Below are positions 39,370-57,933 of a stretch of 64,000 nucleotides of DNA, one piece after another. The notes under the pieces were generated by a model. The model searched no databases. It had not been told where the DNA came from and saw nothing but the letters and a program-made list of their open reading frames with translations. A program made the position numbers and the translations under genes. Numbering within the stretch: position 1 is the first letter of the stretch; every line of letters starts with the position of its first letter. The DNA is from an uncultured Chloroflexia bacterium. GTDB taxonomy: Bacteria > Chloroflexota > Limnocylindria > Limnocylindrales > CSP1-4. The stretch covers positions 544,001 through 608,000 of the forward strand of contig CAWHDR010000001.1 of assembly GCA_963828165.1 (NCBI GenBank), given 5' to 3'.

Positions 39370-39762
39370 GTGTTGAGAGGCTTCGTCATCGGTACGGCCG
39401 TGACGGCCGTCGCCTTCTACATCCTGGTCACGCTGCTCCCGGACATGTTCGCCTACGACGGCGGGATCACGGCGCTGATCGTCATCTCGATCATCTTCGG
39501 GATCGTCAACGGGCTGATCGGCCCGATCGTCAAGCTGCTCGCCCTGCCGATCAGGCTGGCGACCCTCGGCCTCGTCGGCTTCCTCATCAACGGCGGGCTG
39601 CTGCTGCTGACCGCCTGGCTGTCCGACCTCGCCGGTTTTCCGCTGCACGTCGGCGATTTCCCGCCGGACCTGCTGACCGTCGACACGCTCATCGCGGCGA
39701 TCGTCGGGGCCGTCGTCCTGTCCATCACTTCGTCCGTCATCCGGCTTGTCGTCCCCGACTGA
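39370..39762 (+). CDS. YvlD-like 4-TM membrane protein (phage holin family 4_2)
   Basis: IFGIVNGLIGPIVKLLALP..TLGL...ING pattern. Confidence 0.85.
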   Translation: MLRGFVIGTAVTAVAFYILVTLLPDMFAYDGGITALIVISIIFGIVNGLIGPIVKLLALPIRLATLGLVGFLINGGLLLLTAWLSDLAGFPLHVGDFPPDLLTVDTLIAAIVGAVVLSITSSVIRLVVPD

Positions 39763-41024
39763 GACGCCCATCGAGGAGTCGCTCCGCGTCGCGGCCCGGC
39801 GATACGGAACGCCCCTCTTCGTCACCGACCTTGCGACGGTCGACGCCGCCTGTGCGGCCGCCACAGCGGCGTTCCCGGACCCGATCATCCGGCAGTACTC
39901 GGTCAAGGCGAACGACGTGCCGGCCGTCATCGCGCGCGTCGCTTCGCGCGGGTTCGGCGCGAACGTCGTTTCGCGCGGCGAGTGGGCATTGGCCCGCCGC
40001 GCCGGCGTGCCGAACGGCCGGATCACGCTGGAGGGCGTCGGCAAGACGCCCGCCGACCTCCGTGACGCCGCGCGTGCCGCCGCGGCAGGCTCCCCGCTGC
40101 GCTGGATCGCGCTGGAATCGCCGGAAGAGGCCCGGGCGCTCGCTCTCGCGGTGCGTCGGACCAGGAAGGCCGGGTTACGCATCGATGCCCTGTACCGGCT
40201 GAATCCGGACGTCGCACCGGAGACCCTCGCCGGGCTCGCCGTGGGATCCGGTGCCAGCAAGTTCGGCATGACCGAGACCGAGATCGGGGAGGCGATCGAG
40301 GCGGGTGGCGGGCCCGACGGTCCGCTTCGCCCGCGCGGCATCCACCTGCATGTCGGGTCGCAGCTCGGTGCCGTCGATGCCTGGCGGGATGCCGTCCGCA
40401 AGGCCATCGCGATGGCCGCGTTGTGGCGCGGCTCGATCGAGACCTTCGACACCGTCGACCTGGGCGGCGGGTTCCCGGTGCTCCCAACGGACCAGCCGGC
40501 CCCGACCGTCGAGCGTTTTGCGCGCGAGCTGCCTGCCGCGCTCGAGACCGTCCCGGACGATCGTCGCCCGACCCGCCTGGCGATCGAACCGGGTCGGGCG
40601 CTCGTGGCCCGAGCCGGGTGGCTGGTCGCTCGGGTGCTCCACGTGCGCGACCGGGGCGGTCGACAGGTCGTCATCGACGCCGGCATGACCGAGCTCATTC
40701 GGCCCGCGCTCTACGGGGCGCGCCATCCGATCGTGGCCCTCACGTCGCTCGGCCGGGCCGTGGAGCCAGGAGCCGCGGCCGGGCGGGGTGCCGAGCCCGC
40801 GCGCGTCGAGGGTCCGATCTGCGAGTCGACGGACTCGCTGGGCACGCATGACCTTCCGCCTCTTCGCCGGGGCGACCTCGTGGCCATCGCCGATGCGGGC
40901 GCCTACGCCGCGTCACTCGGCTCCGCGTACAACGGGCGGCCACGCCCCCCGCAGATCATGCGGGCACCTGATGGCAGCCTCACGGTCGGTCGCCGGCGCG
41001 GCAGCTCTCGCCTCCTTGGGTTGA
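39746..41024 (+). CDS. lysA: Diaminopimelate decarboxylase (stop at 41024 if a terminal indel is corrected; ORF track gives 41083)
   Basis: YGTPLFV, YSVKAN, SKFG, HLHVGSQ, DLGGG, EPGR, GPICESTD and GAY motifs. Confidence 0.85.
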
Positions 41025-41114
41025 GGAGCCGGCGGCCCCGCCGCCGATATCCCGGGAGGTGGCACAAAGCGACCCCTTGGTGATGTGGTCGCAATTGAGG
41101 CATCATTCGCCGTC

Positions 41115-41552
41115 ATGGACGATCTCGCCCGACGCATGGCCGATCTTGGCGCACCGGACCCGGACTCGTGGGCGGAGTCGGAGATTACCGAGAACATCGC
41201 TCAACAGGCTCGATACATCTTCCTCCGCTCGATCTGGCCTGAGATCATCGACCCGTATTCGGATGAAAGCGTCGTCCGCCAGATACCCGCCGCCGCGCGA
41301 CTCCTCGACGCCGGCGCGTCCATGGCGCACCTGTCGACCGCGTTGCGGGCGGTCGCCTACGAGACGGCGTTTGGTGTCGTCGAAAGGGTGGACGAGGGTC
41401 GTGACCCTGAAGCGCCCGATGACGCGCCTGGGTGGCTCCTCATGGAGACCGACGCGGAGCCGAAGTTGACGGGTCGAGACATCGGCGGCTTGCACGAGAG
41501 TTTGCTCTCGCTCGACCCTAGCGGGCGCGAAGGATCGGACCTCTCGGAGTAG
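41115..41552 (+). CDS. Hypothetical protein (array unit 0)
   Basis: Acidic 145-aa ORF ending GRDIGGLHESLLSLDPSGRE.. Confidence 0.75.
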   Translation: MDDLARRMADLGAPDPDSWAESEITENIAQQARYIFLRSIWPEIIDPYSDESVVRQIPAAARLLDAGASMAHLSTALRAVAYETAFGVVERVDEGRDPEAPDDAPGWLLMETDAEPKLTGRDIGGLHESLLSLDPSGREGSDLSE

Positions 41553-41582
41553 CTCGACTCACCGAACGCGCAAACCGACCCG

Positions 41583-41608
41583 GTGTCATTGGCGCACGCT
41601 GAGCGACG
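41583..41608 (+). repeat. Array site A
   Basis: GTGTCATTGGCGCACGCTGAGCGACG. Confidence 0.85.
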
Positions 41609-41712
41609 GCTGGGTGCGGTCTCCCGGGGCAAACCATGCCCCCACCGTGGCCTCGGCGTCCCAGGGGTCCTATGTCGATGCTGGACGTGCCTACAATTCG
41701 TCGGAGGTGACC

Positions 41713-42114
41713 GTGAGCTGGGACCTTATGCTGTTGCCGTTCGACCCAGATTGGACCACCGCCGAGGAGATCCCGAGCGATTGGTCCCCTGGCGTCTTGG
41801 GGCCACGTGGAACCGTCGTCGCCGCAATTTCCGAGGTGTTCCCCGGTGCAACTGAGGATGCGGTCGGGGTATTCACGCTGCCGGACGACGGAACCGAGAT
41901 ATTGGTTGGGACCGAGGACCCGACCGACGGAGTCAACGTCTCGCTGTATGGCGGCGTTTCCCCGTCGACGATGGAGCGATTGGTCCAGTTCGCAACAATC
42001 CTGGGAACCCGTGCCCTTGATACCCAAACGGCCGAGTTCCTGACGGCGGTTGGCGGTGCCAACAGCTACTCGACGTGGCTGGACTGGAAGAACCGGGTCC
42101 TGGCGTCCGAGTAG
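41713..42114 (+). CDS. Hypothetical protein (unit 1)
   Basis: GGAGG RBS with GTG start; MSWDLMLLPF...RALDTQTAEFL. Confidence 0.75.
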   Translation: MSWDLMLLPFDPDWTTAEEIPSDWSPGVLGPRGTVVAAISEVFPGATEDAVGVFTLPDDGTEILVGTEDPTDGVNVSLYGGVSPSTMERLVQFATILGTRALDTQTAEFLTAVGGANSYSTWLDWKNRVLASE

Positions 42115-42158
42115 GCGGGTTTCCTGTATCGGGCACTGAGTGACGCGCGCGTGTCCTA

Positions 42159-42184
42159 GTGTCATTGGCGGACGCTTTGCGACG
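42159..42184 (+). repeat. Array site B (preceded by a right half-site at 42131-42145)
   Basis: GTGTCATTGGCGGACGCTTTGCGACG; half-site GGGCACTGAGTGACG. Confidence 0.85.
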
Positions 42185-42206
42185 GAGCCTTCCCTACACT
42201 CCGCCA

Positions 42207-42475
42207 ATGGAAGACTTGGACCTGGACCGGCTCACGAAACTGGCGTCAGACGCAAGGCCGGTCCAGGGGTCCTTGGTGGAGGGACGAGACTTCACGAGCG
42301 GCGACAGTATCATTCGAACCGCTGCCGACGGTGATGACTCGGACCTGTACATAGGCGGTGGGCCGAATCGCATCGAAGATCAGGAGCTCATCGCGGCGGC
42401 TCGAAAACCGCAGTGCCGTTGCTGCTCGATGAGGTTCGTCGCCTCCGGGCGCTCCTGAGCGATCGCAGCGGATGA
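42207..42475 (+). CDS. Small hypothetical protein (unit 2), probable frameshift at about 42405
   Basis: MEDLDL...VEGRDFTSGDSII...DQELIAAAR, then AVPLLLDEVRRLR in another frame, stopping at TGA inside site C. Confidence 0.65.
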
Positions 42476-42497
42476 CATTCACGCATGCTGACTGACC
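42472..42497 (+). repeat. Array site C
   Basis: ATGACATTCACGCATGCTGACTGACC. Confidence 0.75.
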
Positions 42498-42874
42498 AAC
42501 GCCAGCCGCATCCACGACAGGCCCAGATCGCTCAGGCGGACATGGCTGCATGGCTCGCGTATCCCACAGAGTTGGAACAGCAGCCCGACGAAATACAGCT
42601 CATCCAAACGATCGAACTCCCGACGAGCGAGGGGCCTAGCGACCTTTTCGTCTTTCAATTCCGAACTGACGATCCCCATTGGGCCGCCCGATCAGGATGG
42701 ATGATCGGCGTTGCGGGTCCGTACCTCAGAGCACTCCAGCCGACCAACCTCGGGCTCGGCTTCACGTTTTCGCGGCTGTCACCCGAAGATGCCATGACGC
42801 TCGAAGACCATGTCGACGAGCTGATCGGCTCCGTGGCCGACTTTGTTTCGCGCTCCACAAGGTCGCGGGATTGA
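42485..42874 (+). CDS. Hypothetical protein (unit 3); ATG lies inside site C
   Basis: ADMAAWLAYPTELEQQPDEI...FRTDDPHWAARSGWMIGVAGP. Confidence 0.65.
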   Translation: MLTDQRQPHPRQAQIAQADMAAWLAYPTELEQQPDEIQLIQTIELPTSEGPSDLFVFQFRTDDPHWAARSGWMIGVAGPYLRALQPTNLGLGFTFSRLSPEDAMTLEDHVDELIGSVADFVSRSTRSRD

Positions 42875-42887
42875 CCGGCGCGCTCAA

Positions 42888-42913
42888 GTGACATTCCCGT
42901 ACGCATTGCGAAG
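42888..42913 (+). repeat. Array site D
   Basis: GTGACATTCCCGTACGCATTGCGAAG. Confidence 0.8.
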
Positions 42914-42931
42914 AATCCGTAACCTCCTGAC

Positions 42932-43437
42932 ATGCCCGACTATCCGCCGTCCAACTTCCAGCAACTCCGGCCATCTCGGACCGGGCTGACCCCTGGCGAC
43001 ATCTTCACCATGCGCATCGCCGATGGTCGCTACCTGTTCGGTCGCGTCGTCCGGACGGACGCCCATTGCTTCGGGCCTGGATGCATCCTCGTGTACGTCT
43101 TCCGCTACATGTCGCACGAACCCGTCCTACCCCCCAGGCTGCTTGTCAGCGATCTCCTCATACCGCCAGCAACCGTGAACCGGCTCGGGTGGCCGCGCGG
43201 CTCTTTCATGACCGTCGGGCGGCGCCCGTTCGAGGACCGGGAGCGATTCCCGGTCCACTACTTCGACGACGCACCTCGCCGCAGACGCTGGGGAAGCGGC
43301 ATTTTGTCAACGAGGACGGCGAGCCAGTCGGCCGACCACCGCGCGGGGCTCCCGTGGGAACGGCTGGGCTCGGGAACTACCGGACGATTGAGGACGACGT
43401 GTCTCGCGCCCTGGGGATACCGCTGTCGCCACACTGA
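42932..43437 (+). CDS. Imm26-like immunity protein (unit 4), frameshift at about 43290
   Basis: LTPGDIFTMRIADGRYLFGRVV, LLIPPATVNRLGW, then GLGNYRTIEDDVSRALGIP in the next frame. Confidence 0.7.
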
Positions 43438-43499
43438 CTCGGTCGACACGCGGGCGGTTCGCCGCAAGGCCTCCGCGCGGAGACACTCACAAGGCTCAA

Positions 43500-43525
43500 G
43501 TGATATTCGCGGACACTGAGTGACG
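43500..43525 (+). repeat. Array site E
   Basis: GTGATATTCGCGGACACTGAGTGACG. Confidence 0.85.
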
Positions 43526-43615
43526 CTGGCGTCGCCGGCCGGGGCGCGAGGGGACCGTGATCACGTGCGCCGGAGGCCCTAGGCGGGTCCCCTTCCCGGA
43601 TGTGAAGATGGACCC

Positions 43616-44101
43616 GTGGTATCGCTGTTCAGGCGCAATCGGCGCCAGCCGCCGGTCCTGCCCGAGGACTCCGGCACGCCGGACCGGGAGGGTCATACCC
43701 CTGCCGATCTGGTCGTGTCGTACCTCGACGCGCTGTATGCATGGGAACTGCGGGCGTTCAAGGCCGCCGGTGCCGATGGGGCGCTTCCGCCGCAGGTCCT
43801 GACCGATCTCGGAGCTATCCGGGAGGCCCACCTGACGTCGCGCGCCCTGGCGACCAACACCACCGTGTCCTTCGGCAACGCACCGGCGTCCGACACCAAC
43901 GTGATGACGGTCCTCGACGTAACGCAACGCGACCCAAGGCATGCCCTGGTCAGGACGACCGAGTATCCGTCCGACTCCCGACGGTCCCGGCTGGACCCGC
44001 AGGGATCCGAGTACCGACTCGCCCTGGTCGATGGACGCTGGCGGCTGAACTCGCGGACCACCAAGGATTGGGACGCCCACAAGATCCGAAGTCTGCTTTG
44101 A
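43616..44101 (+). CDS. NTF2-fold immunity-like protein (unit 5)
   Basis: YLDALYAWE...SFGNAP...ALVRT...EYRLALVDGRWRLNS pattern resembles Imm-NTF2. Confidence 0.55.
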   Translation: MVSLFRRNRRQPPVLPEDSGTPDREGHTPADLVVSYLDALYAWELRAFKAAGADGALPPQVLTDLGAIREAHLTSRALATNTTVSFGNAPASDTNVMTVLDVTQRDPRHALVRTTEYPSDSRRSRLDPQGSEYRLALVDGRWRLNSRTTKDWDAHKIRSLL

Positions 44102-44153
44102 GCGGTGAAGCGTCGTCCGGCGGCGCGACTGACGCCGGACGCGGCGATCTCTG

Positions 44154-44179
44154 GTGACATTGCGGAACACCGAGTGACG
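44154..44179 (+). repeat. Array site F
   Basis: GTGACATTGCGGAACACCGAGTGACG. Confidence 0.85.
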
Positions 44180-44202
44180 GTGCCCTCCATTACCTTGTGC
44201 CA

Positions 44203-44631
44203 ATGGCGCCTATGGACTTCGAGTTGATACCCGATCGGACCGATACGGTGATACCGGCCCTGATCGCAGCGTGCCCGTCGTTCCAGAAGCACGAGGCATA
44301 CCCCGACTTCTTGGAAGACCGTAGCCTTCCGTACCGTGACGTATGGGCGTTCGCGCTCCACTTGGTCGACAAGCTCCAGCAGGGTGAAACCTCCGAGTTC
44401 CCCGCGCTATTCCGTGCCGTCGAGGCGTTGCTTTCAGCTGACGAGCCTGGTGTCCGTGACCTCGTCGTGGTCGGGCTCATCGAGGACCTCCAGAATGCCG
44501 CCGACCAGCGAGGAGGTGATTTGTCTGGTCGCTTTCGTCCGTGGCTCGGTCCGTTGACCGCCATGGCCTGGGATAAGGTTCATCAGTTCTGGGGAACGCG
44601 GGATCAGCCGAGTGACATTGGCACACGCTAA
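44203..44631 (+). CDS. Helical hypothetical protein, immunity-like (unit 6); stop inside site G
   Basis: LIAACPSF...FRAVEALL...DLVVVGLIEDLQN...WLGP. Confidence 0.7.
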   Translation: MAPMDFELIPDRTDTVIPALIAACPSFQKHEAYPDFLEDRSLPYRDVWAFALHLVDKLQQGETSEFPALFRAVEALLSADEPGVRDLVVVGLIEDLQNAADQRGGDLSGRFRPWLGPLTAMAWDKVHQFWGTRDQPSDIGTR

Positions 44632-44637
44632 GTGACG
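44612..44637 (+). repeat. Array site G
   Basis: GTGACATTGGCACACGCTAAGTGACG. Confidence 0.85.
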
Positions 44638-44661
44638 CACTCCGCTAGTACCCTGCCTGGT

Positions 44662-45099
44662 ATGACCGACGAGTTGAGCCCGTTGGAACGCGACGTCCTG
44701 GCGACGATCCTCGCACCTGAGCACCCCGTCATGAACGCGTTGCGTCGTCAGTTGGAGCGGTGCCGCGTGGCGTCTCGCGAGACGACTGGCGTCGGCTTCT
44801 TCACCACCCTCGCGATCGCGCCGGATATCGAGCCCGCCCCGGTGCGGCCCGGAAGGATGAGCCTCGGGGACGTCAAGGGCGACGTCGACGGCCTAGAGCA
44901 CGGGGTTGGCTTCGTCCTCTTCGTTGAGAACGGAGTTCTCGACGTGCTCGAAGGTTTCTCTTACGTGGAGCCTTGGACGGCCATAGACGCCCGATACGAA
45001 CTCAAGGCCGGAGGCGTGATGCACAGCGGCGGCAGCATGACCGACATCGAGCAGGTCCACGACGCTTGGGATCGCTCGGGTGACATTCCCGGACACTAA
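44662..45099 (+). CDS. Hypothetical protein (unit 7); stop inside site H
   Basis: LSPLERDVL...RETTGVGFFT...GFVLFVENGVLDVLEGFSY. Confidence 0.75.
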   Translation: MTDELSPLERDVLATILAPEHPVMNALRRQLERCRVASRETTGVGFFTTLAIAPDIEPAPVRPGRMSLGDVKGDVDGLEHGVGFVLFVENGVLDVLEGFSYVEPWTAIDARYELKAGGVMHSGGSMTDIEQVHDAWDRSGDIPGH

Positions 45100-45105
45100 G
45101 CGACG
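45080..45105 (+). repeat. Array site H
   Basis: GTGACATTCCCGGACACTAAGCGACG. Confidence 0.85.
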
Positions 45106-45158
45106 AAACCGTCACATCATGTCCTTGAGGCACGTCCCGAGACCGCACACTCCTACGA

Positions 45159-45797
45159 GTGAGACCAGCTGTGCGACCCCCCAAGCAGATCGGGCTCCTG
45201 ATCGTCGCGGCGGCACTGTGCGTGTCCTGCGCTGACGTCGTCCCGTCGCCATCCAGTCGCGCCAACGTGTCGCCAGCTCTGACGTCGGACGGCCCGCCTT
45301 CGACAACCGAGCCGAGCACGAGGGCGACCGCACCGGCAGCCTCGCCCCCATCGGCGACGCCCTCACCGTCAGCATCCACTGTGCCGCCCTACCGCATCAT
45401 CGCCGGCGACGAGGTGATCGTGCCGGCACCGGGAACGATCATCTTCGGGTCCCTACCGCTCGGGCCCCGCTCCGACGGTTTTCTGGAGCCGTACCTGACC
45501 TGGCCGGAGGGAGGTCTTACGATCGACGCCGAGGTCGCCTTCGTGGCTTTCTGGGGTCAACCGCTGGGGGCCTCGCAGATCAGGATCACCCTGTATCGCG
45601 TCGCCGGCGAAACCCTTCGCCTCGCCTGGTCAGACCAGAAGCGCGTCGGCCCGGACGCCACGGGGTTCATGGACGAACTGGTGCCGTTCAAGGCACCCGG
45701 GACGTACCGCCTTGAGGTCACGCGCGGTGCGACTCTTCTGGCATGGGGACTTGCCCACATGGGTCCCCGATGCGAGACGAATTGCTCTGGCGGGTGA
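45159..45797 (+). CDS. Putative lipoprotein (unit 8)
   Basis: Hydrophobic leader ending CVSC, a Ser/Pro/Thr linker and a beta-rich domain (PGTYRLEV). Confidence 0.65.
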   Translation: MRPAVRPPKQIGLLIVAAALCVSCADVVPSPSSRANVSPALTSDGPPSTTEPSTRATAPAASPPSATPSPSASTVPPYRIIAGDEVIVPAPGTIIFGSLPLGPRSDGFLEPYLTWPEGGLTIDAEVAFVAFWGQPLGASQIRITLYRVAGETLRLAWSDQKRVGPDATGFMDELVPFKAPGTYRLEVTRGATLLAWGLAHMGPRCETNCSGG

Positions 45798-45817
45798 TGC
45801 GGCTGCTAGTCGCTCAA

Positions 45818-45843
45818 GGGTCATTGGCGGACGCTTTGGGACG
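45818..45843 (+). repeat. Array site I
   Basis: GGGTCATTGGCGGACGCTTTGGGACG. Confidence 0.8.
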
Positions 45844-45902
45844 TCACCGGTCGCTACTCAGAGGCCCACTGCGCCACGCTATCCCCCGAGTATCCTCACG
45901 AC

Positions 45903-46223
45903 GTGCGCGTAACGACTGACCTTGGCGACTTGGGCGACCTATCGATTCGGCTTCGCGTAGCTCTCGCCTCCGTGGTCCTGGCCGGCATCTTCATCGGTCT
46001 TGGGGTTGCCACTGGTTGGCTGTCCTTGCCGGCGGCTTTGCTGCTGATCTGGAACGGTGGCGTCGCTCTCCAATGGCTGTTCACCCGTCGAAGGCCGTGG
46101 TGGGACGATGAGCCGGGAGAGGACATCATCGACCGGGACTTCCCCACTCGCCTTGTCTTGGCACTTGTCCTCGACGCGGCCTTTATGGTCGCCCTGGTCG
46201 CGACACGCACCGTTTCGCTCTAG
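45903..46223 (+). CDS. Small 3-TM membrane protein (unit 9)
   Basis: Three hydrophobic segments; TATCCT lies 6 nt before the GTG. Confidence 0.6.
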   Translation: MRVTTDLGDLGDLSIRLRVALASVVLAGIFIGLGVATGWLSLPAALLLIWNGGVALQWLFTRRRPWWDDEPGEDIIDRDFPTRLVLALVLDAAFMVALVATRTVSL

Positions 46224-46293
46224 CTCGAGGATTAGCCGCGGCATCCCAACGCGAGCCGGGCGGGGCCCGCTGCATGACCGGGGCAAGGACCAG

Positions 46294-46320
46294 GTGTCAT
46301 TGAACGCACGCTTAGTGACG
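46294..46320 (+). repeat. Array site J (27 bp)
   Basis: GTGTCATTGAACGCACGCTTAGTGACG. Confidence 0.85.
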
Positions 46321-46406
46321 GTGGCGCCGCCGCGCTGGTCGCCGCGATAGTCACAGCCCCCACGGCACATCCGTCTCAGAGCGCACCGGCTACGAAGGTC
46401 CGACAC

Positions 46407-47084
46407 ATGACATCCATCGTGATGCGACTCGCTGCCGTCGCGACGACGATCGTGGCGACCGCGGCGGTGATCACCATCCCTGTCCATGCAGAAACGTGCG
46501 TCCACGCGATGCCGGCGGCCGCGCGAGACGTCCGCGGATACACATTCGAGGGCACGATCCTTTCGATTCGCCTGGGACCCATCCAGGAAGCGGGGATGCC
46601 ACGCACGTCCGACGTCAAGATCGCCATCTCAAGAGTCCATGCGAACCCGACCGATAGGCCGCTCGAGGCGCCCTTGAGTGGCGGGCAGACCATCGAAGTC
46701 CACTCGAACGCCTGTGACGGGTTCGCGAGCGTCGGCGTCGAGACCGGGTCCCACGTCCTCATCAGCACCCAGAGCCGATATAGCGCATCGACGTGGAACA
46801 CCGCGGTGTGGCTCGCGGAAGGCGCGAAGCTTCGTCTCCTCGTCCTGACCGACTCCCACTCAGCGCAGGTCTGGCATACGGACGACCGGCGTCTCCGCGA
46901 TGCCGGAACGGTCAGCCAGGCCCTCGCCCTGGTCGCGCCAGCCGCCGTCGGCATGCCAGAGACCGCGACGGCACCTGGTCCGCTCGCCAACGTTGGCGTA
47001 CCTTTGCCGATCGTGTTTGGTGTCGTCGCATTCGTCTTGGCGCTGCTAGGAACAGCCCCCCGATGGGTGCGCACACCCGAGTGA
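46407..47084 (+). CDS. Secreted protein with LPxTG-like C-terminal sorting signal (unit 10)
   Basis: Signal peptide ending VHA; C-terminal MPETA, TM helix and PRWVR tail. The stop falls in a right half-site (CCGAGTGACG). Confidence 0.7.
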   Translation: MTSIVMRLAAVATTIVATAAVITIPVHAETCVHAMPAAARDVRGYTFEGTILSIRLGPIQEAGMPRTSDVKIAISRVHANPTDRPLEAPLSGGQTIEVHSNACDGFASVGVETGSHVLISTQSRYSASTWNTAVWLAEGAKLRLLVLTDSHSAQVWHTDDRRLRDAGTVSQALALVAPAAVGMPETATAPGPLANVGVPLPIVFGVVAFVLALLGTAPRWVRTPE

Positions 47085-47157
47085 CGATTGCGGGCGAGGG
47101 CGGATGAGAACCGATGCTGCGGCCAGGCTCATGCATGCGCCAACCGTCCATCGTCTG

Positions 47158-47183
47158 GTGTCATTGACGAACGCATTGCCACC
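47158..47183 (+). repeat. Array site K
   Basis: GTGTCATTGACGAACGCATTGCCACC. Confidence 0.75.
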
Positions 47184-47243: not shown

Positions 47244-47630
47244 GTGGTTGACTTCAACACCCCTGCCGAGACGCGCATCGATCGCTGGCTCTGTGCGGTG
47301 CGCCTGGTGAAGACCCGCCCGATTGCGACGCAGCTGTGTGAGGGCGGTCACGTCCGCGTAAATGGGGTGCCGGCGAAGCCGTCGACGAAGGTTCACGCCG
47401 GCGACCGGGTCGAGGCGCGGATCGCAGATCGTGACCGCGTCGTGGAGGTCGTGCACCCGATCGAGACGCGTGTCGGAGCACCCGTCGCTGTGACTTGCTA
47501 CGTGGACCACACCCCGCCGCCCATCGTCACCGAGGTTCGACCGGGGATCATGGCTGTGAGGGGCGAGGGCCGGCCGAGCAAGCGGCTCAGGCGCGAGCTC
47601 GAGCGCCTGCGCCGGGCTCCCAACACCTGA
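47244..47630 (+). CDS. S4-domain RNA-binding protein (Hsp15-like)
   Basis: TRIDRWLCAVRLVKTR, GHVRVNG and GRPSKRLRREL motifs. Confidence 0.9.
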   Translation: MVDFNTPAETRIDRWLCAVRLVKTRPIATQLCEGGHVRVNGVPAKPSTKVHAGDRVEARIADRDRVVEVVHPIETRVGAPVAVTCYVDHTPPPIVTEVRPGIMAVRGEGRPSKRLRRELERLRRAPNT

Positions 47631-47658
47631 GGCCCGCGCTCCGTGCCATCATCCCCGC

Positions 47659-49389
47659 GTGATGCGCCGTAACGCCAGCGCTGCTCTGCTGTCCATCGGC
47701 ACGGCGATCGCCCTGCTGTTGCCGATCGCGGCCTCGGCCGCTGGGCCTCCCTACCCCGACCCGGTGGAGGGCCAGGCGGTCTACGACAACGCCGGGATCC
47801 TGTCCGACGCGACCATCGCGAGCGCCGAGGCGACGATCGATGCCATCGAGGCGCGGACTGCGGCGGAGATCGTCGTCTACACCGAGCTCACCGACTTCGG
47901 CGTGACCACCGAGGAGACCGAGGCGCGCGCCCGCGCGCTGATCGACCAGTGGGGCGTCGGACGGCGCGGCTTCGACGACGGGCTGGCGATCTTCTTCGAC
48001 ATCGACCCATCGCTCGAGCATGGCCAGGTGCAGCTCTACGCCGCGCCCGGTTTCGAGGCGACGTTCCTGACCAACGCCGAACGCCAGGCGATCTTCGACG
48101 ACGACATGCTGCCGTACCTGGAGGAGGCCGATTTCGACGGGGCGCTCGCCGTCGCGCTCGAGAAGGTCGACGCCGCCGCCACGCCCGAGAACGCCGCTCG
48201 TCTCGAAACGGGCCGGCAGATCAATGCGGTGCTGGGACTGATCGGCGCCCCGGTCGCGTTCATGGGCCTGGCCGGTTGGGCCTACATGCAGTGGCGGCGG
48301 TTTGGGAAAGACCCGGTCTACCTGGACGATCCCTCGATCCTCATGCCGGCACCGCCGCCCGACCTGACCGCGGCGTCGGGGGCGTTCGTCATGGACGGCA
48401 GGGCCTCGCGCCGTGCGCTGACGACCGCGATGCTCGATCTCGCGTCGCGCGGGCTGATGTCGTTCCGGGAGGATCGTGGACTGCTCGGGCTGTCCAACAA
48501 GGTCGGCATCGAGGTGGGGCCGCCCGAGCTTGACCCGGTCGAAGAGGCGCGGCGAGCGCTCAACGCGCGGCGACCGATCGGGCCCGCGGAGGAATACGCA
48601 CTGAAGGAGCTTCGTCAGCTCGCCCCGGGCAAGGACGCGGGCTTCATCGACGCCGACGAGCTGCCGAAGTTCGGCACGTCGGTCTCGACCTTCGACTCCA
48701 AGCTCGAATCGCACGTCGTGAAGAAGGGCTGGATGGTCGAGAAACCGAGCAAGGTCGTCAGTCGCTGGACCGGCAAGGGCGTGCTGGTGATCATCGCCGG
48801 TGGCATCGCCGTCTTTGCCGGGATCAACGTCCCGATCGCCGGGCTCGTCATGATCGGCGCCGCGACGATCGCGGGCGGTCTCGTGATCCTGGGGTTCGCC
48901 CGTGGCATGCCGGCGGTGACGATGCCAGGAGCGATGATCCGGGCGATGCTCGCCGCCTACCGGCGCACGCTCCAGAAGACCATGGAGCAGGCGCGATCCA
49001 TGGAGCAGGTCGTCAAGGAGGCGGGTCTGGAGTGGCTCGAGACGCCGGACCAGGCCGTGGTCTGGGGGACCGCCCTCGGACTCCAGGGTGAGATCGAACA
49101 AGTCCTCGCAAGGAGCCTCGAGGACGTGCGCCAGCAACCGTCGATGGCGTCGGCGACCTACTTCCCGGCGTGGTATCGGACGTCGGACGGTTCGTCGTTC
49201 GCGAGTGGGATCGCGGCTGGGAGCGGCGGCAGCATCTTCTCCGGCTCCGCCGTTCCGGACCTTGGCGGCATGATGTCGGCGTTGGGCACGATCGGGAACT
49301 CGCCGGCATCCTCGGGGAGCAGCGGCGGAGGCGGCTTCAGCGGGGGAGGCTCGGGCGGCGGCGGAGGCGGCTCGGGCGGCGGGTTCTAG
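47659..49389 (+). CDS. TPM-domain / DUF2207-like membrane protein with Gly/Ser tail
   Basis: VYDNAGILS, WGVGRRGFDDG and AMLDLASRG motifs; GGGFSGGGSGGGGGG tail. Confidence 0.85.
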   Translation: MMRRNASAALLSIGTAIALLLPIAASAAGPPYPDPVEGQAVYDNAGILSDATIASAEATIDAIEARTAAEIVVYTELTDFGVTTEETEARARALIDQWGVGRRGFDDGLAIFFDIDPSLEHGQVQLYAAPGFEATFLTNAERQAIFDDDMLPYLEEADFDGALAVALEKVDAAATPENAARLETGRQINAVLGLIGAPVAFMGLAGWAYMQWRRFGKDPVYLDDPSILMPAPPPDLTAASGAFVMDGRASRRALTTAMLDLASRGLMSFREDRGLLGLSNKVGIEVGPPELDPVEEARRALNARRPIGPAEEYALKELRQLAPGKDAGFIDADELPKFGTSVSTFDSKLESHVVKKGWMVEKPSKVVSRWTGKGVLVIIAGGIAVFAGINVPIAGLVMIGAATIAGGLVILGFARGMPAVTMPGAMIRAMLAAYRRTLQKTMEQARSMEQVVKEAGLEWLETPDQAVVWGTALGLQGEIEQVLARSLEDVRQQPSMASATYFPAWYRTSDGSSFASGIAAGSGGSIFSGSAVPDLGGMMSALGTIGNSPASSGSSGGGGFSGGGSGGGGGGSGGGF

Positions 49390-56946: not shown

Positions 56947-57933
56947 TCAGGCCCTGCCCACCAATTCCTCCCCCATGACGTCGATGTGATCCAGGTCCCA
57001 CGGCAAGAAATCCTGGAGCATGATTCGCTCGAGACCCGCCTCGGCGAATCGCTTGAGCTGCTCGCGCGCCTGATCGGGCGTGCCGTAGACCCAGCGGTTG
57101 CGGCGCTCCTCCAGCCAGGCCTCGCCAGCCTCCATGTCCTCCCCGAACGCCTTGACCAGGTCGCGTTCGCGCCCTTCGAGCTCGTCCTGGTCGCGACCGA
57201 CCAGCACGCCCGCCATCGTCGATCGCGCAAGCGTCGATGGGTCGCGATCGATCGCCCGACAGGCCTCGTCGAGTTTCCCGTTTACCTCGATCGCCTTGTC
57301 CGGCGACGACGAACTCAGGTTGAACTCGTCCGCGTAGCGCGCGGCGAGGCGATACGAGCGGGGTGAGCCCTGGCCGCCCACGATGATCCGGGGCCGAGCG
57401 CCACCGGCCGGCGTGCGCGGCCGGCCCGCGACGTCCACGGGCCGTGGCCGGAAAATGGCGCCCTTGAGCTGGATCCCCGTGATGCCCTCGTACGACCACC
57501 CATCCGGCTCGCCCCACAATCCGTGCAGGATCGCCAGCTGATCCTCCATGAGATCGGCCCGCTCCTTGATGGGTGGGAATGCGAGGCCCAGCTGCTCGTG
57601 CTCGAGCGCGTTCCATCCCGCTCCCACGCCGACCTCGATCCGGCCGCCGCTCATCTCGTCGACGGTGGTCACGACCTTGGCGAAGGTGCCCGGGTGGCGG
57701 AACGTCACGGGCGACACGAGGACGCCCAGCCCGATGCGCTGGGTCTCACGTGCGAGTCCGGCGACGACGGACCACGCGTCCGTACTCGGCTGGCCCGCCG
57801 GCCCCGGAAAGCTCGCGAAATGGTCCGCCCGGAGATAGGCGTCAAAACCATTGGCCTCGGCACGCTTTGCGACGGCGAGCTGGTCGGCATAGCTCATGCC
57901 CTGCTGGGGCTCGGTCATCAGGGTGTATCGCAT
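56947..57933 (-). CDS. LLM-class F420-dependent-type oxidoreductase
   Basis: EPQQG, RADHF, VTFRHPG and SGGRIEVGVGAGW motifs. Confidence 0.9.
   Translation of the reverse strand: MRYTLMTEPQQGMSYADQLAVAKRAEANGFDAYLRADHFASFPGPAGQPSTDAWSVVAGLARETQRIGLGVLVSPVTFRHPGTFAKVVTTVDEMSGGRIEVGVGAGWNALEHEQLGLAFPPIKERADLMEDQLAILHGLWGEPDGWSYEGITGIQLKGAIFRPRPVDVAGRPRTPAGGARPRIIVGGQGSPRSYRLAARYADEFNLSSSSPDKAIEVNGKLDEACRAIDRDPSTLARSTMAGVLVGRDQDELEGRERDLVKAFGEDMEAGEAWLEERRNRWVYGTPDQAREQLKRFAEAGLERIMLQDFLPWDLDHIDVMGEELVGRA

Follow-up and report, generated by a model that had tools for sequence, protein, structure and literature searches.

Arrays of exchangeable single-gene cassettes in Limnocylindrales and a large serine recombinase that probably moves them

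To our knowledge, integrons are the only well-understood system that stockpiles mobile cassettes of single genes, and they depend on one family of tyrosine recombinases and on folded attC sites. Canonical serine integrases recombine attP with attB only, or attL with attR when assisted by a directionality factor, and the elements of the staphylococcal cassette chromosome (SCC) carry replication functions. According to PMC13739063, the att sites of SCC elements exchange at a GA in their centre, which is flanked by degenerate inverted half-sites, of which three come from the element. Proteins of the SUFU, Barstar and Imm families are described as immunity proteins against polymorphic toxins, and their genes as forming polyimmunity loci (PMC3482391). 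Here we analyse a stretch of 64,000 nucleotides (the window) from an uncultured bacterium of the Limnocylindrales, phylum Chloroflexota, which between 41 and 47 kb carries a tandem array of short genes separated by co-oriented copies of a short repeat, called sites below. The window corresponds to C1:544001-608000 of the genome G000 (3.31 Mb in six contigs, 70% GC, 87.7% complete). We put at about 0.6 the probability that this is an array of mobile single-gene cassettes moved by a large serine recombinase (LSR), whose gene stands at the head of sister arrays and which would act in trans on the array of the window.

Cassette arrays in the window and in related genomes

The initial annotation of the window had reported eleven plus-strand copies of a 26-bp repeat that is not an attC site. 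Its pattern, with at most two mismatches, matched eight times on the plus strand (at 41583, 42159, 42888, 43500, 44154, 44612, 45080 and 45818) and not at all in 100 shuffles of the window, and an nhmmer profile built from the sites added the copies at 46294 (E 0.004, with a 1-nt insertion) and 47158 (E 3e-5). The remaining copy, at 42472 (ATGACATTCACGCATGCTGACTGACC), was weak in the profile scan (E 9.8). The tally is ten solid sites (eight by pattern, two by profile) and a degenerate one, all on the plus strand, with a spacing of 313-864 bp. The rest of the window contained no further site by pattern, just as had been claimed, and the sole other nhmmer match was at 57851 (E 4.8). The distinction from attC held, but the length had to be revised: the conserved block extends from position -4 to +24, about 28 bp (TC-N-R-GTGWCATT-SS-CG-N-ACRC-TKW-GYGA), and its information content collapses after A24, with G23 present in 134 and A24 in 149 of 158 full sites. 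The block includes three GAC triplets spaced 10 bp. Position 4 (A or T) pairs with positions 9-10 (CC or GG), T4 being found nearly always together with GG, and by this pairing the site seems to come in two sub-types, in the window as well as in all other arrays. The start of the array, previously placed at 41061, falls inside a twelfth site, of a shorter form, which heads the array (Table 1).

Each interval between sites holds one plausible plus-strand open reading frame (ORF), and the ORFs are mutually unrelated, both as annotated: forced alignment gave 16-34% identity to the first sequence and zero conserved columns. Several ORFs have their stop codon inside the next site, TGA at site positions 2-4 or TGA/TAA at positions 18-20. 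The lower GC content noticed earlier was also seen, 0.62-0.68 across 41-47 kb versus about 0.69-0.74 in most of the window. The units, which we call cassettes, have one gene each and measure 0.3-0.9 kb in the window and up to ~1.3 kb elsewhere.

The sites are not confined to the window. All 46 profile matches with E<0.1 in G000 fall in five co-oriented clusters, arrays A to E (Table 1), and four weaker sites lie inside these arrays. The flanking genes differ between arrays: decarboxylase and TPM genes in the window, PHP and ymdB, spermidine synthase, and others. In the genus the pattern was found in 47 of 121 genomes, compared with a single match for a reversed control, and 21 array loci from 18 other genomes contained 108 sites with strict co-orientation within every locus. 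When one genome per species was scanned, all seven multi-site rows among the matches listed belonged to Limnocylindrales, Chloroflexia or Chloroflexota, and the single matches elsewhere were at the level expected by chance for the pattern over 596 Gb (~280 by our own arithmetic). Of 125 viral and metagenome stretches, 33 had at least two sites, in 32 of them co-oriented. The scan of viral contigs gave six single matches, none among the multi-site loci, and these we took for chance. A metagenome contig of 1982 bp (L181) was rejected as an array, it is a tandem satellite of 51% GC with a unit of ~130-160 bp, whose seven pattern matches arose by chance and are unrelated to the arrays.

Homologous cassettes were found in different surroundings. 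Cassette A7 of the window has a homologue in B1, the cassette at the head of array B (74% over 484 nt), a family of 700-bp cassettes, 88-92% identical, is represented by B2, C3, D4, E2 and the first cassette of an array in the genome G094 (L017, L018, L019, L016, L146), and cassette C4 of G000 recurs with 94.6% identity in the array that G094 carries at its decarboxylase locus. In all these cases the homology is bounded by sites and the neighbours differ. Two arrays of G135 have a two-cassette block in common. Whole arrays also differ between relatives: in G042 and G123 flanks that are 96% identical enclose 6 and 10 sites, respectively, with zero common cassettes, and at the locus of the window G000, G066 (decarboxylase 94% identical) and G094 bear different arrays, the G066 array including a homologue of A10 (48% identity). 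In five more distant, array-free relatives the decarboxylase gene adjoins the TPM gene at a distance of ~160 bp, without array or site. Fixed gene content across relatives, named in the initial annotation as a finding that would count against gene capture, was not observed; on this evidence the cassettes are discrete exchangeable units, array content varies and the breakpoints are at the sites. The ORF of the 700-bp family, ~160 amino acids with a hydrophobic N-terminus, is on the strand opposite to the array. Cassette B4 (326 bp; L017, G000:C1:967.7-970.0 kb) is a hybrid: the first 71 nt correspond to the beginning of B5, and the final 250 nt are 97% identical to the end of B6. A tandem duplication of B5-B6 with an internal deletion seems to be its origin, rather than a site-specific event.

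The point of exchange was mapped with homologous cassettes that have different surroundings. Of 16 pairs, 12 were used, after exclusion of an internal duplication and of three pairs that are syntenic between G135 and G001, and their identity at each position was compared with that of 4000 site pairs drawn at random. Through position 24 the downstream site is inherited together with its cassette, and it drops to background level at positions 25-27; its variable positions -2, 4, 10 and 20 match at 0.92-1.0 versus backgrounds of 0.30-0.55 (position 20: 1.0 versus 0.49). The upstream site is at background level up to position 22 and co-inherited from position 25. This places the exchange at site positions 23-25, and because of this pattern of co-inheritance the site must be regarded as the 3' end of its cassette. 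The same point is seen in whole-array comparisons: G042 and G123 diverge directly after ...CACACATTGCGA, and G000, G066 and G094 directly after GGGAGGTGSCACMAAGCGA. The short head site of the window, GGGAGGTGGCACAAAGCGA, is also present 3' of the decarboxylase gene in G066 and G094, and the three genomes diverge directly after its ...GCGA. Public reads gave one run with 7% of the sampled words and eight short contigs without joints, which says nothing on excision.

A large serine recombinase and the anatomy of its predicted attachment site

A search for other arrays and for a recombinase gene next to one, as proposed in the initial annotation, led to array E, the largest array of G000. Directly upstream of it lies the sole serine recombinase gene of the genome (C5:10214-11631; L016:4215-5632), which encodes an LSR of 465 amino acids with Resolvase, Recombinase and zinc ribbon domains and is followed, on the opposite strand, by a gene for an HUH Rep protein (PF23343). 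An LSR and Rep pair (61% and 55% identical) precedes the array on the metagenome contig L188. Searches with Rep identified 16 of 401 genomes of the order, in five genera, and 3 of 121 genomes of the genus. Fourteen LSR-Rep loci were fetched. Wherever the sequence extends far enough, LSR and Rep show the same linked arrangement. Counting G000 and L188, 2 kb or more of downstream flank was available for 11 loci. Co-oriented sites, from one to more than eight, follow the pair in 10 of the 11 evaluable loci, from four genera (array E of G000, L188, L291, L292, L293, L295, L296, L297, L299 and L300), and a full site upstream of LSR-Rep was found in none of 14 loci. Since arrays occupy ~1% of the genome, this linkage cannot be chance, by our own estimate made without a formal test and on loci that are phylogenetically non-independent.

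The LSR resembles phage-type enzymes, its nearest solved relatives being an 'Integrase' (9iu2) and the TP901-1 integrase. It matched no equivalog model of NCBIfam (best XisF, 72.6 bits vs. a cut-off of 375), and the scores against the Ccr models were far below the cut-offs (CcrB 53.6 vs. 900, CcrA 45.5 vs. 700, CcrC 38.4 vs. 900). We infer from the linkage and from the site anatomy described below that the LSR is most likely the cassette enzyme. Since the window array is without the module, it would depend on LSR-Rep in trans. Three other candidates were rejected: the LSR of G123 (39% identical), which has neither Rep nor adjacent sites; Rep itself as general cassette enzyme, on account of its presence in only 3 of 121 genomes of the genus; and the third tyrosine recombinase of G000 (C1:454488-455279), which is not associated with sites, 12 of the 29 genomes (of 121) that have it containing sites versus 11.3 expected by our own count.

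Upstream of the LSR gene, all 14 loci have a short site followed by a -10 box (TAATGT), and the start is leaderless, an arrangement like that of a cassette. In 12 of the 14 loci the GA of the short site is exactly 13 nt before the -10 box, which equals the spacing in cassettes with a -10 box at +38. The proximal motif of the short site, A-C-R-C-T, is in register with that of the full sites, whereas the distal motif GTG-A-S-R-T occupies -19..-13 in the 14 short sites and -24..-18 in the 158 full sites, a shift of exactly 5 bp. Counted from the central GA, the distal motif is at positions 11-17 in the short and at 16-22 in the full site. Rutherford et al. (2013, PMC3783163) describe for the LI integrase a motif of the zinc-ribbon domain (ZD) at positions 16-24 of the attP half-site, displaced by 5 bp towards the centre in attB. 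The 5-bp shift found here matches this signature of serine integrases as it is described there.

To the right of the GA the LSR junction contains a mirror image of the full site, AATGWCAC at positions 39-46 (7.0/8) and GYGTSCG at positions 30-36 (5.6/7), and because of this the -10 box of the LSR gene would lie within a P' half-site. In these terms the head junction is an attL (B + P'), the element has its P arm in the first full site that follows Rep, and a circle formed by LSR-Rep would have a quasi-palindromic attP. The dyad symmetry about the central dinucleotide is strong at the LSR junction and weak at the cassette junctions, where the 5' ends of the cassettes have G32 in 118, T38 in 101 and C41 in 109 of 158 cases. 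Because this faint mirror signal has an attB-type offset, the internal cassette junctions look like attR. Short heads of arrays without LSR were located by a fuzzy pattern around the array heads: a B-type short site heads arrays A-D of G000 and six of nine arrays checked in relatives. This is what would remain after excision of LSR-Rep. We read the site as the P-type (attP-like) left half of the LSR attachment site, with the distal element RGTGWCATT, the proximal element ACRCTKWGY and exchange at the GA at positions 23-24. What had been described as an integron-like platform resembling a cluster of attC sites lacking integron-integrases (CALIN) stands as far as the non-attC, non-dif site, the single-gene cassettes which it bounds and the recombinase encoded elsewhere are concerned, but not as to membership of the integrons; the 26-bp motif is in our reading the left, P-type half of a serine-integrase site with central GA, and the system is therefore mechanistically closer to SCC elements than to integrons.

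These elements can be assembled into a shuttle model. An LSR-Rep circle (attP = P/P') would integrate at a B-type head by attP x attB recombination. It would be excised, with a putative directionality factor, either via its own attR or via a more distal cassette junction, and in the latter case it would take the neighbouring cassettes along. The circle may be replicated by Rep. If it then integrated at another place and left it by way of a nearer junction, the cassettes would be deposited there, and in this way arrays would grow and turn over from the head. In this model the sites would be co-oriented because the GA is non-palindromic. The model could account for head growth, for the several loci, for co-orientation and for the many arrays without recombinase, including that of the window; it gives no account of how new genes gain a P-type end.

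Promoters, cargo and flanks of the window array

Many cassettes seem to be equipped with a promoter element at a fixed distance from the site. A TANNNT box was found within +27..+50 in 56 of 157 sites, compared with 3.8% of random windows; 36 of the 56 boxes lie at +38 precisely, and 37 are followed by a start codon after 6-7 nt. Because of this fixed spacing of the -10 box, the site probably doubles as the upstream half of a promoter.

Of ten ORFs scanned in the window two had a Pfam match, to Imm26, the only named immunity family, and to DUF7674, and none of the ten matched the anti-phage defence families of PADLOC. Elsewhere in G000, DUF6228, DUF4279, DUF6869 and Glyoxalase_3 were found, and among 77 cassette ORFs of relatives Barstar (twice), Imm1, SUFU, DUF4304 (twice), DUF4265, DUF6881, DUF6193, DUF1963, GNAT, APH and SnoaL. 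These families suggest that the cargo consists largely of anti-toxin immunity proteins and small detoxifying enzymes; the arrays would therefore be stockpiles of defensive genes.

Table 1. Arrays of G000 and features of the array locus in the window (window positions unless a contig is given)
Feature	Position	Strand	Remarks
Array A	in window	+	
Array B	C1:965-972 kb	minus	
Array C	C1:1609-1612 kb		
Array D	C1:1778 kb		
Array E	C5:13-23 kb		18 sites
Orn/DAP/Arg decarboxylase gene	39746..41083	+	Pfam; core gene, left flank
Head site, short (attB-type) form GGGAGGTGGCACAAAGCGA	41054..41072	+	predicted crossover GA at 41071-41072
Cassette A0	41073..41606	+	ORF 41085-41552, 155 aa, without Pfam match; terminal full site 41583-41608
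Cassette A1	41607..42182	+	ORF 41614-42114, up to 166 aa, without Pfam match; site 42159-42184
Cassette A2	42183..42495	+	ORF 42207-42458, 83 aa; -10 TACACT at 42195-42200, leaderless ATG; terminal degenerate site 42472-42497
Cassette A3	42496..42911	+	ORF 42485-42874, 129 aa, ATG within degenerate site 42472-42497; terminal site 42888-42913
Cassette A4	42912..43523	+	ORF 42932-43519, 195 aa, Pfam Imm26 (E 1.8e-12); stop within site 43500-43525
Cassette A5	43524..44177	+	ORF 43616-44101, 161 aa, no Pfam match; terminal site 44154-44179
Cassette A6	44178..44635	+	ORF 44197-44631, 144 aa, Pfam DUF7674 (E 7e-14); -10 TACCTT at site position +38; stop within site 44612-44637
Cassette A7	44636..45103	+	ORF 44662-45099, 145 aa; -10 TACCCT at +38, leaderless ATG; Atlas look-up gave unnamed clusters only; terminal site 45080-45105
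Cassette A8	45104..45841	+	ORF 45159-45797, 212 aa, N-terminus lipoprotein-signal-like (judged by eye); terminal site 45818-45843
Cassette A9	45842..46318	+	ORF 45903-46223, 106 aa, hydrophobic; site 46294-46320 with 1-nt insertion
Cassette A10	46319..47181	+	ORF 46407-47084, 225 aa, signal-peptide-like; last site 47158-47183, CA in place of GA
S4-domain gene	47244..47630	+	Pfam S4; directly 3' of last site
TPM/DUF2207 membrane protein gene	47659..49389	+	Pfam; core gene, right flank

The decarboxylase gene on the left has orthologues in 50 of 61 genomes of the genus. The S4 gene, which separates the last site from the TPM gene, was not found by tblastn at the locus in the nine relatives with sequence as far as the TPM gene; this comparison excludes G066, whose stretch (L020) is cut off by a contig end. 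The S4 gene is kept beside the arrays of G066 and G094, in the latter with a further site after it. It is part of the insertion relative to the array-free relatives and may represent an old terminal cassette. A stretch resembling the short site, GTGCCATCATCCCCGCGTGA, is located directly before the start of the TPM gene (window 47244-47663 region). At the end of array E, the ymdB-like gene beside the last site (G000:C5:22602-23801, L016:16603-17802, minus) encodes a C-terminal extension of ~145 amino acids beyond the Pfam domain, reaching the site, and the array end may have altered the 3' end of this gene. Rfam gave no match at E<=0.1 and no tRNA was found, thus neither a known RNA family nor a tRNA target was detected.

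Alternative explanations and comparison with known systems

Several observations weigh against the view that the LSR moves the cassettes. The reading frame of the G000 LSR gene is broken in the zinc-ribbon region, with the N- and C-terminal parts in different frames; this reflects either a pseudogene or an assembly error, the homologues at the other loci being in a single frame. The module is rare, present by the Rep counts in 3 of 121 genomes of the genus and 16 of 401 of the order, whereas arrays occur in 47 of 121, and no serine recombinase was found in the array-rich genomes G042, G135 and G094. One LSR-Rep locus with intact flank (L298; degraded Rep) and a truncated copy in G100 (L301) are without sites. 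The mirror signal at the cassette junctions is weak, 3.09/8 at position 34. Single internal cassettes, if bounded by attR-like junctions, are not obviously mobile under the canonical rules, and no directionality factor was identified: no conserved extra ORF was found between Rep and the first site that could be a candidate. The fixed spacing of the -10 box may mean that part of the conservation of the site is regulatory. Only a minority of the cassette ORFs match any family. It must also be noted that all genomes compared are metagenome-assembled genomes or metagenome contigs and that the relatives are non-independent samples.

Some of these points can be explained by assuming that the cassettes are mobile, but that LSR-Rep is only a small integrative replicative element, resembling the integrative and conjugative elements of actinomycetes (AICE), which uses the array head as attB, while another enzyme moves the cassettes. 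The rarity of LSR-Rep compared with the arrays would fit such a parasite, and so would the truncated G100 copy, which is remote from any site. The LSR junctions have the textbook form of an attL (B + P'), their P' half being strong; the right halves of the cassettes are, in contrast, weak, and attR-like cassette junctions are not expected substrates of canonical serine integrases, as these are described in PMC3783163. On the other hand, the cassette sites have the exact P-type half-site geometry and the central GA of the LSR's own site. In 14 of 14 loci LSR-Rep is at the head and sites are never upstream; a parasite hitting many equivalent sites would not give such a pattern. Nor is any other recombinase class linked to the arrays: the tyrosine recombinases are an Xer pair and the unassociated third type mentioned above, and no Y1 transposase was found. 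For these reasons we consider this explanation unlikely, and we continue to prefer the LSR as the enzyme that moves the cassettes.

We give little credence to a mainly regulatory role, in which the repeat would be the operator or upstream promoter element of a small regulon of defence genes and the shuffling a by-product of homologous recombination. The TANNNT box exactly at +38 behind 36 of 158 sites, with the start codon 6-7 nt later, would be in keeping with such a role, and so would the three GAC triplets, whose 10-bp spacing presumably resembles that of the direct-repeat operators of winged-helix regulators. Yet 101 of 157 sites have no TANNNT in +27..+50. The switch of co-inheritance is sharp at positions 23-25 instead of being spread along the 28-bp repeat, the sites keep the orientation of the array even for the 700-bp family with its opposite-strand ORF, and terminal sites abut core genes or, as with ymdB at array E, a convergent gene. 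The short form shifted by 5 bp and the mirror half-site at the LSR also speak against an operator. The initial annotation had named the presence of the motif upstream of ordinary core genes, as a transcription factor operator, among the findings that would count against its reading; no full site was found before ordinary genes elsewhere in G000, all 46 being in the five arrays.

The two remaining possibilities assume tyrosine recombinases. There is a very slight chance that the housekeeping XerC/XerD act on the sites as on dif, in the manner of pdif modules or of arrays of integrative mobile elements exploiting Xer (IMEX). A conserved Xer-like pair represents the only tyrosine recombinases in several array-rich genomes, and the reverse complement of the distal motif (AATGTCAC) has ATGTC in common with the XerD arm of true dif. 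The true dif of the order is different, however: it reads TTCCGATAA-GGTGAG-TTATGTC, of which the cassette site has only ATGTC, and it was found at G000:C1:2888994-2889016. Across two families of the order, 27 of 31 genomes have this dif once, with none in the control. In an alignment made by eye the putative XerC arm matches at 2-5 of 11 positions and the spacer has 7-8 nt instead of 6. Moreover, the crossover coincides with the outer edge of the conserved block instead of a junction of arm and centre, and the sites all point in the same direction.

A divergent classical integron or CALIN, with folded attC and an IntI tyrosine recombinase, is hardly credible in spite of the co-oriented single-ORF cassettes with the site at the 3' end, the crossover near the 3' end of the site and the arrays without adjacent recombinase, given that the RYYYAAC/GTTRRRY boxes are absent, the site has 28 bp, there is no shared hairpin (18 single-strand folds of nine window sites gave z -1.4 to +1.6 and differing structures), and no PF00589 gene lies near any array in six genomes. 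Tblastn over the 21 array loci identified one tyrosine recombinase nearby, 3.2 kb from the G100 array, and this single case belongs to a separate prophage-like island. The island (L160:4385-9594; G100:C2) contains two tyrosine integrases, 3-7 kb upstream of the array, and a primase/helicase-like ORF of 533 amino acids, which do not occur at the other arrays. Two further identities were rejected: a sigma-54 promoter, since the likeness to TGGC-N7-TTGC exists only in the GG variant, the invariant GG-N10-GC is not kept (G at positions 9 and 10 in 95 and 88 of 158 sites) and PF04552 (RpoN) was not matched; and a repetitive extragenic palindrome with its transposase (REP/RAYT) or an IS200/IS605-type element, for lack of a hairpin and of a PF01797 Y1 match in G000, 87.7% complete. 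The motif is not a known attC or insertion sequence (IS) end, either of which would, according to the initial annotation, have refuted its reading, nor a dif site.

There is a substantial chance that the system deserves the name of a new platform. We tentatively, and at somewhat less than even odds for the whole of the following picture, call it a 'serine integron', a gene-capture platform independent of the tyrosine-recombinase integrons. The LSR together with a rolling-circle Rep would be a self-replicating founder cassette, which loads, shuffles and exports single-gene cassettes. P- or B-type left halves, combined with near-generic right halves, would turn a one-way integrase into an iterative stockpiler, the site would serve as the upstream half of each cassette's promoter, and the arrays would be multi-locus libraries of anti-toxin immunity genes in soil Chloroflexota. 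Our literature search found no description of single-gene cassette arrays of a serine recombinase, nor of such arrays in Limnocylindrales. If true, cassette stockpiling evolved more than once, here by means of an LSR and duplex att half-sites, and the second route, mechanistically unrelated to the first, is located in a poorly known lineage of soil and freshwater; the biology of SCC reaches down to single genes, polyimmunity loci obtain a concrete mechanism of assembly, and an LSR with dozens of natural site variants becomes available to tool-builders.

It is useful to compare the arrays with the systems to which they come closest. The phage-type serine integrases (LI/A118, Bxb1, phiC31) are similar in domain set, in their solved relatives and in the 5-bp shift of the ZD motif, as given in PMC3783163; the difference is that here dozens of P-type half-sites form the ends of cassettes, the right halves are mostly degenerate and there is no phage. 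The polyimmunity loci described by Zhang et al. (2012, PMC3482391) are likewise tandem, same-strand series of unrelated immunity genes which differ between strains, and Imm26, Imm1, Barstar and SUFU are among their families. In that paper's account of them, however, extended loci are listed for Proteobacteria, Bacteroidetes, Firmicutes and Actinobacteria only, there is usually one locus per genome, with an occasional adjacent XerC/D, and no defined recombination site is given. The rAID-1 arrays of Bacteroidales (Ross et al., 10.1101/471110) are described as orphan immunity arrays with skewed GC and intergenic repeats reminiscent of integrons. These features recur here, with only a minority of the ORFs belonging to a named immunity family. 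Beside the rAID-1 array, as described there, is a conserved tyrosine recombinase of the XerD family, whereas no such gene is linked to our arrays and the candidate is the LSR; repeat and phylum are different, there are several arrays per genome, and here the cassette boundaries and the crossover were mapped, which goes beyond the description of rAID-1 in that source.

With integrons and CALINs the arrays have in common co-oriented, promoter-poor single-gene cassettes with the site at the 3' end, a crossover near the end of the site, with the final bases of the site forming part of the following cassette, a distinct attI-like head, many arrays without recombinase and a fast turnover of cassettes between relatives. 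They differ in having a serine instead of a tyrosine recombinase, and a duplex quasi-palindromic att site with central dinucleotide instead of folded attC. The recombinase gene is in the first cassette position and not divergent upstream of attI, and roughly a third of the cassettes are equipped with a -10 box of their own, at a constant distance from the site.

SCC and SCCmec elements carry replication functions, as LSR-Rep would. In the description of PMC13739063 they also rely on an LSR and on att sites with degenerate inverted half-sites on either side of a central GA, form tandem 'composite' series at a single chromosomal site and include elements without recombinase that are served in trans. 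The units here are single genes of 0.3-1.3 kb, compared with SCC islands of 20-60 kb, and there are up to 20 units per array and five arrays per genome, at different intergenic loci and not at rlmH. The LSR is not an orthologue of Ccr (CcrB 53.6 bits, cut-off 900), its partner is an HUH Rep, the host belongs to the Chloroflexota and the cargo is immunity-like. As far as can be judged from the sequences, the system is integron-like and SCC-like in its working and a member of neither group, IntI, attC, Ccr and rlmH being absent and the units being single genes. The array of the window may then be likened to an SCC element without ccr, or to what a CALIN is relative to an integron.

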